NCBI GenBank assembly: GCA_951406725.2 | Contig: OX597823.1 | Coordinates: 47,678,001-47,742,000 of the forward strand | Length of the DNA: 64,000 nucleotides | Source: Octopus vulgaris | Taxonomy: Eukaryota | Direction of reading: 5' to 3' | Shown here: positions 15,001 to 18,000 of the stretch, piece by piece | How the letters are laid out: every line of letters starts with the position of its first letter | Numbering within the stretch: the stretch's first letter is position 1 | Made by a program: the position numbers

Positions 15001-18000
15001 GAGTCCCACCCTATCCATGCAGACATTGAACCCACCCGCTCCCCCCCAACAAGAAAACAAAAGAAAAAAAAGAATACACATACACAAGAGATTGAAATCG
15101 AGCCCAGGCCGTACATTTGTACTGTGACTGAACGGAGAGAAGTTGAAAGTCTAATGGAGGAGTATAAATGGTATGATGTTGGAGAGACTAGGTATGCTGT
15201 GATTGAAAGGAAGAACATAGGTGAGTTTGTGGGGAGGTGTGAAGGGGAGGATTGGGAGGTGAAAGATGTAAGAATGAGCGATGAATTCGTGGAAGGTGTG
15301 AATGAGTGTTTCGGAGTAGGAATGGATATGGAATTTATTCGTATTGACAAAGAACATTCAAGTGACTATGAAAAACAAAGGACAGGTAAGTGATGCTGAC
15401 GGACGGGGCCGTTGGTATCACTTTCATTTTATCATTTTTCGTTTAACAATTCATGTTCATAAAGTTTAATTATAATGTTCTATGTCCCCATGTTTTGTAA
15501 TGTCCCCCTCTTCGTTGGCCCCTTGTGGGTAATAAAAAATCACGTTTTTTTTCGGCTCTGTGTTTTTTGCTCTCTGTGAAATTCGGTAAAAAGAAAAAAG
15601 AACAAAAAGTGAATGGTTGTTGGTGTAAAATTTTGAACATAGTTGATGAGGTTTCGCGTCTCACTGGTTCTGCGCGTTACACTTTTTCGGTTCGGGAGGC
15701 CGTTTCTCGGCCGGAGGCGACTATGAGCCGCCTCCATCAAGCGGAGGAGATGGAAGGGAGAATTTACTCTGAAATTTCGACGGAAGTATCGACATCTGAG
15801 GAGGAGTTGGCGGTGAAAAAGATGGAAGGCACCTACGCAGGTGTAACGAAGAAGTCAACGGAAAGAGAGATAGACTTGGCTAAGTTGGCGGGCCTCCAGG
15901 AATTTGTGAAGGAGGACGAGAACGGTGAAGTTGAGCTGCTGCATCCAGTAGGGTGCGGAGACTGGTTCCATCGTAGAACCATTAAATATAAAGTATTTAT
16001 GAATGGAGGTAGAAAGATGGAAGTAATTAACATGGAAGCAATTGAAGAGGCTCTTAAGCAGACGGGAGAGGAAATTGTGTACATGACGAAAGGATTACAA
16101 TACGGAACCATAACGGTGCAATTTAAAAGTGAAAAAGCAGCCAGGAATGTAGCAGCCAAGGTGGTGAGTACAGAAAAGATTTACTTGTTACCCTCGTATC
16201 TGAATAGGCGGACAACTAGAATTAGGGTGGAGGGAATACCTCCACACCTAGAGGGCGAAGTAATAACGGCTGCGGTTATAAAAGGAAATGAGGATAAGGT
16301 GGACATCCTCCACGCCAGTATGAAGTATGAAGGCGTGAGAGGTGCCACACTGGTTATGAACATTCAAACGGAGGCGGATGTTATAGAGAAGATTACGGAC
16401 AGCATAAAGACTGGAAATATTATTATGAGAGTGTGGGTGGAGGGTAGGGCGCCCAGGTGCTACAAGTGTGGCCAAAGGGGTCACATAAGAGCCTACTGCC
16501 CTCCCCCACCAAAGGAAAAAGAAAAGGAAAGCGTTGAGGAAGCCTCGGGAGAGGAAGAAAATAAACAGAAACAAACAGAGAAGGAAACGACAGAAGAAGA
16601 GGAGATGCAACAAGAGTGGAAAGAAGCGGGAACAAAGAGAAAAAGAAGGAAAAAGAAAAACTGTGCGAAGCCCCAAACCACCCCGACACCACCCATACCC
16701 TTGGAGTCCCATCCTTCCCCTGCAAACAGTAATTCCACCCACTCCCCGCCTACAAGAAGAATAAAAACAGACACACAGAGCAAAGAAAGTCCCAAGACCC
16801 ATTTTTTATTTGTTATACATGGGAGAGACGTACAAAACGTTAAAAAAACTGGTGTTAACCAAGTGGTACGAACACGAAGATTGGAGCTACACGGCTGTGG
16901 ATGGTGATGATACGGGTATATTGGCGACAAGGTTAGAGGAAGAGGGTGTGTGTTGGAAGTCAGTGGAAATGAAAGATGAATGGATAGAGAGGGCTACAAG
17001 AAAAACGAATGTTGTGATGGTTAAAACAGGAATACTAATTGAAAATGGGTGAAGAAGGACAGATAAGTGATGCTGGCGGATGGGGCCGTCGGTATCGCTC
17101 TCATATATCATTTTCATATTCCATTTTGCTCATATATATGTAATTGTGATGTTCCATGTCCCCATGTCTTGTAATGTCCCCCTCTTCGTTGGCCCCTTGT
17201 GGGTAATAAAAAATCACGTGGTTTTTTCGGCTCCTGAAAATTCGGTAAAAAAGAACAAAAAGCGTTGTTGTTGTTGTGGAAATTCTGAACGGCGTTGACG
17301 CGGTTTCGCGTTTCGCTCGTTCAGCGCGTTACACTTTTTCTGTTTTGGCGGCCGTTTTCGGTCTGTCAGACAGAAGGAGATGGACTATGAGTCTCTAACA
17401 GACTTGTCCACGACAGATGAGGAACTGGAACAGGCAATTGCAGTGAAGCTGATGGAGGAAAAGGCTGGAGTTTTTGAGTCTTTATCAGACTTGCCTATGT
17501 CTGAGAAGGAGCTAGAAATGGCAGCAAGGAAATTGGAAGACAAGCTGAGTTATACCTATGCCGGTGTAACCAAGAAGGCGGAAGAGAAAGGGGTCGACAT
17601 GGCCAAGTTGCCAAGTTACCAGAAATACATGAAAAAGGAAAGCGGTGAGGTGGAACTATCACCGACACCCAGGAGAAAAGAATGGTATGATAAGAGGACC
17701 ATTGTTTACAGGGTGTGCGCAAACGAAAGGAAGAGGGTAGAAGTTGTATCCATGGAATGGATAGAGGAAGCCCTGCGAAGAACTGAGGAGGAAATAAATT
17801 TTCTGACTCGAGGATCCAAGTACGGGACCGTAGTTGTGCACTTTAAAAGTGAATCTGCAGCGAGGAAGATGGCAGCGAAGGCGGTGAAGTCGGAAAAGGT
17901 AACACTGTTACCTACGTATTTAAACAGGAGGATTACACGAATAAGGGTGGAGGGAGTGCCACCAAACGTGGAGGCAGAATGGATTGTGGCGGCTGTGATC

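Follow-up and report, generated by a model that had tools for sequence, protein, structure and literature searches.

The window, that is, the whole stretch of 64,000 nucleotides of Octopus vulgaris DNA that was analysed, carries a tandem array of LINE ORF1-type units and, on the same strand, an open reading frame for a LINE ORF2 protein that matches RVT_1 (2.5e-31) and Exo_endo_phos (2e-13) (Table 1). The units of the array abut, with no A-tails between them, and they recur as blocks: units 1-4 are repeated as units 5-8 with 0, 3, 0 and 7 substitutions, and units 8+9 and 10+11 are two copies of one 3.4-kb block (97.3% identity over 4771 bases). Unit 9 does not have the make-up of a target-primed retrotransposed copy, which would be inserted separately from its neighbours and end in an A-tail or be flanked by a target-site duplication. 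The blocks, of 3.4 kb and 6.7 kb, were duplicated as DNA, and the array expanded by unequal exchange between such blocks rather than via RNA.

Table 1. Features of the array and of the LINE locus (window coordinates)
Feature	Position	Strand	Remarks
3.4-kb higher-order block (A-type + B-type unit), one copy	12001..16766	+	Repeats at 15402-20150, 97.3% identity
Unit 9: 5' region, then ORF1-like ORF with CCHC knuckle	13401..15377	+	ORF as assembled 13979-15127; unit of 1977 bases
One-base deletion, unit 9, in (GA)n/AA run	14860..14861	+	Frame shifted upstream of the patch
C7 run, unit 9	15035..15041	+	C6 in unit 11 (after 18442), an independent frameshift of unit 11
Exon-like module for the ~100-aa C-terminal domain	15089..15385	+	AG before 15089; GTAAGT donor from 15386
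Hypermutated patch, unit 9	15102..15319	+	16 sense-strand A-to-G, 1 G-to-A; 16/80 A's changed; 218 bases
Unit 11, sister of unit 9	16802..18778	+	ORF as assembled 17380-18528
Unchanged homologue of the patch, sister unit 11	18503..18720	+	Proxy for the ancestral state
Diverged C-terminal-domain copy, chimeric unit 12, outgroup	20176..20478	+	16 sites: A 10, G 5, T 1
Diverged C-terminal-domain copy, chimeric unit 13, outgroup	21856..22158	+	16 sites: A 11, G 4, T 1
Unchanged homologue of the patch, unit 14	23598..23815	+	Only copy with intact 471-aa ORF; A at 15/16 sites
LINE ORF2, 1131 aa: endonuclease, reverse transcriptase, zf-RVT	31050..34445	+	~16 kb downstream, same strand

Units 9 and 11 are almost the same up to position 15101. 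Over the 1291 bases of 13811-15101 they differ by one substitution (T/A at 14886) and two 1-base indels, an A absent from unit 9 after 14860 and a C absent from unit 11 opposite 15041. The next 218 bases of unit 9, 15102-15319, hold 17 substitutions relative to unit 11. In sixteen of them, unit 9 has G for the A of unit 11 (15102, 15124, 15134, 15137, 15145, 15159, 15209, 15229, 15244, 15250, 15268, 15295, 15296, 15298, 15308 and 15319), and a single one, at 15301, is of the reverse direction, G-to-A in unit 9. The near-identity before the patch, the 16 sites with their one reverse difference, the restriction of A-to-G to one strand and the alteration of the amino acid by 14 of the 16 changes had all been claimed in a sequence-only reading by eye; each of them holds on alignment, the last in the frame of unit 14. 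Every changed A has become G, never T or C, and the other types of change are nearly absent from the patch (T>C 0/54, C>T 0/16, G>A 1/68).

Of the 19 substitutions that separate the two units over 13811-15545 (1735 bases), 17 fall within these 218 bases (binomial p=6e-14), and at least 16 of 17 being of one directional type has a probability of 3e-13, given that A>G makes up 9 of the 65 substitutions between units 11 and 14. Chance is excluded as the source. The edges of the patch are sharp: none of the 25 A's in the 41 bases before it, and none of the 28 in the 68 bases after it, is changed (p=0.004 and p=0.002, respectively, at 20% per A). The longest run of same-type mismatches is 14 for units 9 and 11, compared to 3 in 41 other unit pairs, in a screen that set aside 6 of the 10 pairs among units 9, 11, 12, 13 and 14, each with at least 200 substitutions. 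Against unit 14, the A-to-G run is 12. In none of the 43 unit pairs listed does a run of T>C exceed 2. The patch is thus unlike any other unit pair screened within the window. Spontaneous deamination of a displaced single strand was considered and rejected, because C>T is at 0/16 while A>G stands at 16/80. Nor do the changes fit APOBEC-type editing: their direction is A>G, with G>A at 1/68 and C>T at 0/16.

Which state came first was judged from unit 14, from the chimeric units 12 and 13, and from 49 further Octopus vulgaris copies of the domain, taken from 36 predicted proteins. Unit 14 carries A at all sites but 15137, where it has G, in agreement with the sequence-only count of 15 in 16. 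At 11 of the 13 changed residue positions, the unit-9 residue is found in 0 of 44-49 other copies, so that A is ancestral. At the codon of 15145 all 47 other copies have K, and at that of 15308 all 49 have Y. The A state (M) at the 15124 codon is present in 10/10 internal copies that have either the unit-11 or the unit-9 state, the eleventh internal copy having R. The unit-9 haplotype as a whole recurs in 0 of the 49, the best identity to the unit-9 version being 87%, equal to unit 14. The comparison of residues across copies thus shows the G's to be derived in unit 9. Two observations that had been named beforehand as fatal to an editing origin, an ancestral G and equally common clusters of T>C, were looked for, and neither was found.

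It may be objected that G is ancestral after all, or that ordinary gene conversion, in which repair may have been GC-biased, copied the patch from a paralogue that had diverged. Units 12 and 13 do carry G at 15124, 15145, 15159 and 15308 (unit 12 also at 15229), the four shared sites are among only 7 where units 12 and 13 have G and units 11 and 14 have A (hypergeometric p=0.027), and the 5' region of the units shows a patchwise exchange of two haplotypes. However, unit 9 has none of the many other patch differences specific to units 12 and 13, unit 13 itself has A at 11 of the 16 sites, and the K, Y and M residues of the other copies at the codons of 15145, 15308 and 15124 point the other way. 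Moreover, a diverged donor or a biased repair would leave mixed types of change, T>C included, yet this type is absent. A donor resembling units 12 and 13 is ruled out by the patch differences and the outgroup residues, and GC-biased conversion by T>C at 0/54, so that this whole reading is close to refuted.

On their 5' side, the changed A's avoid G. Eight of the 16 changed A's are preceded by A, six by T, and one each by C and G, whereas the 64 unchanged A's of the patch are preceded by G in 29 cases, A in 21, T in 11 and C in 3. The count of 14 sites with a 5' A or T and one with a 5' G, made from the sequence alone, is thereby upheld, and the deficit of 5' G (1/16 versus 29/64) is significant (Fisher p=0.0035). 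Expressed as the rate of change per A, the 5' bases rank T (6/17), A (8/29), C (1/4) and G (1/30), which is the order of preference of ADARs, and TAT is the most-changed triplet (5/8). In squid, RNA editing is reported to be clustered within single RNA molecules and to show 5' and 3' neighbour preferences (PMC4384741). On the 3' side, an enrichment of G, the preference of mammalian ADARs, is absent (G 5/24, T 6/21, A 4/28, C 1/7); this is a point against an ADAR-type route, and another is that only one event is seen among the 5 copies of the window and the 49 taken from proteins, 54 in all.

The same context would suit an error-prone DNA polymerase of the polymerase-eta type, which would have filled a repair or gene-conversion tract of ~220 nt while misinserting G opposite T at WA motifs. 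Fourteen of the 16 changed A's lie in a WA motif, the preference for TAT and the lack of one for a 3' G are both in keeping with such an enzyme, and the array undergoes recombination. Yet about half of what polymerase eta produces at A:T pairs is A>G, and the enzyme makes errors at other bases too, a spectrum unlike that of the patch, where all 16 outcomes are A>G, with none at the 54 T's or 16 C's, and no mixture of outcomes is seen. The density of 16 changes in 80 A's, and the lack of any comparable patch in the 41 other unit pairs, which recombine as well, also speak against it, and we consider this explanation quite improbable.

The patch lies wholly within the exon-like module for the C-terminal domain, and in the gene models of databases successive modules are joined end to start. 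A patch delimited by the exon is ruled out: 28 A's at the 3' end of the module are unchanged, so the module does not set the edges. The sequence-only reading also saw in the patch a possible route to diversity of the C-terminal domain. As assembled, units 9 and 11 are both shifted in frame before the patch, with a stop at 15125-15127, and the patch region of unit 9 is out of frame; the change at 15124 abolishes the ATG with which most gene models of the C-terminal domain begin. The searches covered single contiguous stretches of the window: Pfam gave no family for the 471-aa ORF of unit 14, AlphaFold2 modelled the C-terminal domain from a 17-row alignment with a mean pLDDT of 52.1, too low for a fold search, and the ESM Atlas returned no usable match.

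Unit 9 has its frameshift in the (GA)n/AA run and unit 11 in the C7/C6 run, and for this reason both may be long-read consensus errors. With both placed in homopolymer or low-complexity runs, some consensus error at these units is indeed likely. This raises the question of whether the patch itself is an artefact of assembly or polishing, arising either by an error of the long-read consensus in a tandem array or by short reads of a G-bearing paralogue polished into unit 9. A published Octopus vulgaris assembly, which may not be the source of the window, was built from 27.5x Nanopore R9.4.1 reads and polished with linked short reads (PMC10700109). However, in units 11 and 14 the same local sequences were called with A, which speaks against a base-calling error tied to context, and 16 changes of one type that avoid a 5' G are not a known consensus error. 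Mis-polishing would in addition require a real G-bearing copy, and the unit-9 haplotype is in none of the 49 others. An artefact is for us an improbable source of the patch.

Coleoid cephalopods edit their RNA more heavily than any other animals. Judged by its letters, the patch of unit 9 is probably the footprint of one burst in which adenosines of the sense strand underwent ADAR-type deamination. A route by which such editing could have reached DNA would comprise three steps. A sense transcript of a LINE ORF1-type unit, paired with complementary RNA, would have been hyper-edited over ~220 nt; the inosines would have been read as G when this RNA was copied into DNA, either by a LINE reverse transcriptase or during RNA-templated repair of a break; and recombination would have put the copy in place of the homologous part of unit 9. 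This last step has to be assumed because unit 9 is no retrotransposed insertion but part of a block that was duplicated at the DNA level, which counts against the route. Tentatively, we rank this three-step route as the most likely one, and to the explanation as a whole we assign a probability of roughly 0.5. The ORF2 of the window is a possible source of the reverse transcriptase, and the presence of an intact reverse transcriptase ORF in the same locus is an observation in favour of the RNA route. The sequence-only reading had gone further and taken the patch as support for an RNA intermediate of the ORF1-only units; this part is not supported, since duplication took place in blocks of DNA, 3.4 kb and 6.7 kb long and without A-tails, and the patch, which covers 218 of 1977 bases, does not show an RNA origin of the units. 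Elsewhere in the units, 13424-13709 holds 13 differences between the two haplotypes of the 5' region, of which 6 are A/G, all in one direction; as a second trace of editing, these were found too mixed to call, with no outgroup.

One type of change in a short tract, with a reverse transcriptase gene nearby, could also be had from an unedited transcript, if a reverse transcriptase working under a skewed nucleotide pool had misincorporated dC opposite rA and the tract had then been recombined into unit 9. But hypermutation under biased pools is mainly G>A and U>C, the avoidance of a 5' G (p=0.0035) has no known basis in it, and the same unproven recombination step is required, which together make it most improbable.

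A double-stranded substrate for the enzyme was sought in several ways. Folded on itself, the unit-11 version of the region is no more stable than its shuffles (z=+0.47, 137/200 shuffles at least as stable; in a second fold, z=+0.84, 14/20). None of 17 pairs of inverted repeats touches 18503-18720, and no minus-strand copy of the patch region exists within the 64 kb. The best same-strand duplex from a scan of 18 target windows, at -108.6 kcal/mol, compares with -98.2 +/- 6.1 for 28 neighbour-preserving shuffles, 3 of which reach it. Intramolecular dsRNA is not supported, the two folds, the inverted-repeat scan and the duplex scan having given nothing above shuffles. Rfam had 0 matches at E<=0.1 over 13000-24500.

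The interpretation given in the sequence-only reading is supported in part. The changes are strand-specific A-to-G, derived, averse to a 5' G and unique among the unit pairs of the window. A hyper-edited transcript may have been reverse-transcribed back into the array; no dsRNA partner was found, however, and editing of DNA in a DNA:RNA hybrid would give identical letters. In that case, ADAR would have deaminated dA directly in the sense DNA strand, paired with complementary RNA in an R-loop from antisense transcription or with break-induced RNA on a resected end, and the resulting dI would have been replicated as G, with no need for reverse transcription. In its favour, the strand bias and the 5' neighbour bias would be those of RNA editing, the patch is short and sharply bounded, and the array plainly recombines. 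ADARs are able to act on the dA of DNA/RNA hybrids in vitro, where their context preferences are the usual ones (PMC5389660), and ADAR2 works on DNA:RNA hybrids at double-strand breaks, where it is required for resection and homologous recombination (PMC8448848). Nevertheless, matched hybrids were described as poor substrates in vitro (PMC5389660), yet 20% of the A's of the patch are changed. Editing of the DNA strand is not known from any animal germ line, and in a review it is called unknown even in retroviral hybrids (PMC12925331). Such an origin is, in our opinion, unlikely, and its more specific form, in which ADAR would have acted in the octopus germ line on a hybrid at a recombination-repair intermediate of the array, is slightly less likely still. 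Hypoxanthine in DNA is, besides, normally repaired, which weighs against both forms.

The closest parallel to an ADAR-type burst with an RNA route is the hyper-editing of retroviruses by ADAR, described for Rous-associated virus, avian leukosis virus and HTLV-2/STLV-3 (PMC12925331, a review), where reverse-transcribing elements acquire dense, strand-specific A-to-G changes over a short stretch, the mutagen acting on RNA and the change being read out in DNA; hyper-edited viruses have been recovered with their A-to-G runs. These are exogenous viruses, in which changes affect up to ~50% of the A's of an inverted-repeat or LTR region. The octopus patch, in contrast, is in a LINE-derived unit of a germline assembly, within a DNA-duplicated array; 20% of its A's are changed and no inverted repeat was found. 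In a study of human cells, L1 RNA was found unedited and its restriction by ADAR1 did not depend on editing (PMC5224506), a point against the proposed RNA route. A burst of deaminase activity preserved in a single genomic copy is likewise known from the G-to-A editing of vertebrate retroelements by APOBEC (PMC4866542), but the base change is opposite, the enzyme belongs to a different family, and APOBEC acts on cDNA, so that no RNA-editing step is implied. That study asked for 5 or more same-type mismatches in a row and 10 or more in total, all in one direction, with a strand bias and with polarity set by the family consensus; transferred to A>G, all of these thresholds are reached by the unit-9 patch.

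Clusters of A-to-G within single molecules, with neighbour preferences, characterize hyper-edited RNA in cephalopods and other metazoans, and its targets are often young repeats or sense-antisense pairs (PMC4384741, PMC4365171, PMC9989829). There, however, the clusters are mismatches between RNA and DNA, whereas the G's of the octopus patch are in the DNA of one paralogue. The three-step route also resembles the deaminase and reverse-transcriptase models of somatic hypermutation, in which ADAR would edit WA sites of an RNA that is then reverse-transcribed and takes the place of the homologous gene segment (PMC5704389, PMC11817618). These models are contested and concern vertebrate immunoglobulin genes and cancers, with mixed types of mutation, whereas the patch reported here stands alone, is purely A-to-G and lies in a germline repeat. 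Within the literature searched, most subscription journals lying outside it, no such footprint was reported in mollusc or cephalopod DNA, a weak indication that it is absent from print.

The route from edited A's to genomic G's is an open question (discussed in PMC12458077). As a cluster of hyper-editing type fixed in one paralogue's DNA, the patch of unit 9 would show in a concrete instance that edited information, or else the enzyme that does the editing, had reached the germ line. Direct editing of DNA, if it is what happened, would mean a heritable mutation from dA through dI to G, and an activity known to date only from work in vitro would have left its first trace in vivo. The analysis also offers a simple recipe for a genome-wide test, in which paralogous repeat copies are compared and clusters of same-type mismatches counted for all twelve types of change.

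Alignment of unit 9 (13401-15700) with unit 11 (16802-19086), its sister among the tandem ORF1-like repeats, and with unit 14, which retains an intact 471-aa ORF, confirmed every position that the sequence-only reading had named in a cluster of A/G differences. Over 13811-15101, units 9 and 11 differ by a single substitution (14886) and two 1-base indels; over the next 218 bases, at 15102-15319 (the patch), they differ at 17 positions, 16 of which carry G in unit 9 and A in unit 11. As had also been claimed, unit 14 has A at 15 of these 16 sites and a single difference, at 15301, runs the other way. 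Within the patch span 16 of 80 A's are changed, along with one of the 68 G's but none of the 54 T's or 16 C's, and its edges are sharp, none of the 25 A's just upstream or the 28 just downstream being affected. The patch contains 17 of the 19 substitutions of 13811-15545 (p=6e-14), and the probability that at least 16 of 17 would be of one directional type is 3e-13, given an A>G share of 9/65 between units 11 and 14. These statistics exclude a chance origin.

The changes were polarized with units 12 and 13, distant chimeric units in which an A-type body is joined to a diverged C-terminal segment, all five window copies of this segment (units 9, 11, 12, 13 and 14) being aligned. The comparison was extended to 49 further copies of the C-terminal domain, supplied by 36 predicted O. 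vulgaris proteins that are encoded on many chromosomes. At the 16 sites, unit 13 carries 11 A's, one T and four G's (15124, 15145, 15159, 15308), and unit 12 has a further G at 15229. At 11 of the 13 changed residue positions, not one of the 44-49 covering copies has the residue of unit 9; the valine from 15229 is found in 2 of 47, and the arginine from 15137, commonly polymorphic, in 20 of 47 and also in unit 14. The 15124 codon is biased in this set, many gene models beginning at its methionine; the 11 internal copies have methionine in 10 cases and arginine in one. No copy is nearer to the unit-9 version than unit 14 (87%). Since the unit-9 residues are absent from the other domain copies at 11 of the 13 positions, A is the ancestral state of the subfamily and the G's are private to unit 9; an ancestral G, the counter-case raised with the original proposal, is not what units 12 and 13 and the protein copies point to. 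The change at 15301 is probably a private G>A of unit 9 within the patch. It yields an asparagine alongside the aspartate at 15347 that characterizes the unit-11 subfamily, a pairing seen in none of the 49 other copies on a reading of the alignments rather than a count.

Units 12/13 differ from units 11 and 14 by a G in place of A at 7 sites, and unit 9 shares this G at 4 of them (p=0.027). This mild overlap fits repeated hits at favoured or weakly constrained sites, and the four G's of unit 13 may mark such recurrent, favoured positions. A donor resembling units 12/13 was rejected because unit 9 carries none of their other differences.

The changed A's are preceded by A in eight cases, T in six, and C and G in one each. 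A 5' G stands before 29 of 64 unchanged A's versus 1 of 16 changed ones (p=0.0035), which bears out the avoidance of 5' G proposed earlier; per A, the change rate is 6/17 after T, 8/29 after A, 1/4 after C and 1/30 after G. The 3' neighbours of the 16 changed A's show no bias. When 43 unit pairs were screened for consecutive mismatches of the same type (six cross-type pairs, having at least 200 substitutions, being left out), the longest run outside unit 9 was 3, for any type, versus 14 and 12 in unit 9. This screen revealed no T>C cluster anywhere in the array, another counter-case of the sequence-only reading, nor any of G>A or C>T. Only one such event occurs in the 54 copies compared.

A pure, dense, strand-specific burst of A>G changes that avoids a 5' G is the signature of ADAR-type adenosine deamination, which is the best explanation of the patch, with a probability of about 0.7 for this mutagen. 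A repair patch synthesized by a polymerase of the eta type was weighed, 14 of the 16 sites being WA; against it stand the purity of the changes, all 16 altered A's having become G with no T or C affected, and their density, judged by the spectrum expected of polymerase eta. Spontaneous deamination of a displaced strand should yield C>T in excess of A>G and was rejected (C>T, 0/16), as was GC-biased conversion, which should also produce T>C (0/54 in the span). Context-dependent base-calling error is unlikely to have produced the G's, since units 11 and 14 show A in identical local sequences, and mis-polishing of unit 9 from a paralogue would still require a real G-bearing copy. The published O. 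vulgaris assembly, which may not be the source of the window, is described as built from 27.5x of Nanopore R9.4.1 reads, with linked short reads used for polishing (PMC10700109).

On the earlier suggestion that such a patch diversifies the C-terminal domain, 14 of the 16 changes are non-synonymous when read in the unit-14 frame, as the sequence-only reading had it, and the one at 15124 abolishes the ATG where most gene models of the domain begin. As assembled, units 9 and 11 each have a private 1-base deletion ahead of the patch, and their ORFs stop at codons ending at 15127 and 18528, respectively. Both deletions fall in low-complexity runs, (GA)n/AA in unit 9 and C7/C6 in unit 11, and length differences in such runs are typical of long-read consensus error; the frameshifts may be errors of this kind, so both ORFs may be intact. 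The patch lies in an exon-like module encoding the C-terminal domain (~100 aa), and the consensus GTAAGT donor that follows is kept in all five window copies. Protein searches, all made with single contiguous stretches of the window, matched only predicted O. vulgaris proteins, the best being 100% identical to the unit-14 domain. The domain has no Pfam family and no usable Atlas match, and its AlphaFold model is poor. In the 36 proteins it occurs as tandem copies or fused to unrelated sequence, for example in a 652-aa protein and in one named as a TP53RK isoform.

The window sequence contains no N. Its first 30 kb are occupied by a head-to-tail, + strand array of 17 units, each of ~1.4-2.0 kb, in which a 5' region precedes an ORF1-like frame bearing a CCHC zinc knuckle; over 1-34445, the 17 ORF1-type units, which fall into three or more sequence types, lie upstream of one LINE with an intact ORF2.

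Features of the unit array, the patch-bearing module and the adjoining LINE (window positions)
Feature	Position	Strand	Remarks
Type A units	units 1-8 and 10		
Type B units	units 9, 11, 14		units 12 and 13 are A/B chimeras
Type C units	within 24016-29453		three units
Two 5'-region haplotypes	13424-13709 vs 16825-17110		13 differences in ~290 bases, 6 being A/G in the same direction
Frameshift, unit 9	14860/14861		(GA)n/AA run
Frameshift, unit 11	after 18442, homologous to 15035-15041		C7/C6 run
Exon-like module of C-terminal domain	15089-15385; homologues 18490-18786, 23585-23881	+	GTAAGT donor
Broken ORF1	after the 17 units, before ORF2		
LINE ORF2	31050-34445		intact, 1131 aa; endonuclease, reverse transcriptase, zf-RVT domains

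Units 1-4 recur as units 5-8, with 0, 3, 0 and 7 substitutions per pair, and 12001-16766 is repeated at 15402-20150 (97.3% identity over 4771 bases). The existence of these higher-order repeats, one of 6.7 kb (units 1-4 = 5-8) and another of 3.4 kb, shows that the array grew by unequal DNA exchange. Two 5'-region haplotypes are shuffled among units: units 1, 3, 4, 5, 7, 8 and 9 share one, and units 2, 6 and 11 have its counterpart. With no outgroup for polarity, the pair could stem from normal exchange or be a fainter sign of the process behind the patch. Most units also contain minus-strand ORFs of 164-194 aa (1125-1679 and in each later unit), which may simply follow from the purine richness of the sense strand. 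Immediately upstream of the last, broken ORF1, a short arginine/lysine-rich ORF (29704-29988) includes 3.8 copies of a 24-base tandem repeat (29714-29805). Further on, 35000-64000 is rich in AT, AC and TAA microsatellites; it includes an (ATC)80 run (47806-48045) and, at 49966-50270, 4.7 copies of a 66-base tandem repeat.

That the changes reached the DNA by way of RNA is a tentative reading, at slightly under even odds, the evidence cutting both ways. An edited RNA would have been copied into DNA and afterwards recombined into place in unit 9. In favour of this route are the sense-strand placement of the changes, the presence of a reverse transcriptase gene 16 kb downstream, and the precedent of hyper-edited retroviruses, which are among the closest known things to the patch (PMC12925331). 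In its unit-11 version the patch stretch folds no better than shuffles and is touched by no inverted repeat; it has no inverted copy in the 64-kb window, and its best same-strand duplex is not significant, so that any double strand for editing would have to come from antisense RNA. For LINEs, the experiment reported in PMC5224506 detected no editing of human L1 RNA. Ranked second after the RNA route, ADAR could have deaminated the DNA strand of a DNA:RNA hybrid, which would leave identical letters; such deamination is known in vitro (PMC5389660), and in homologous recombination ADAR2 has been reported at hybrids associated with breaks (PMC8448848).

Unit 9, as part of the DNA-duplicated repeat of 12001-16766, does not represent a new insertion. 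Judged from these repeats, the array changes through exchange of DNA, and the patch came later, on one unit. Because of this, the earlier suggestion that the patch supports an RNA origin of the ORF1-only units is not sustained.

Also among the closest known things are APOBEC-type G>A footprints in vertebrate retroelements; with the published thresholds set to A>G, the patch passes the screens used for them (PMC4866542). Cephalopod hyper-editing clusters are a close likeness, but at the RNA level (PMC4384741), and the literature searched, with incomplete coverage, yielded no cephalopod or mollusc case of an A-to-G footprint in DNA. Compared with known cases the unit-9 patch is unusual in its setting, a tandem array duplicated as DNA instead of a new insertion.
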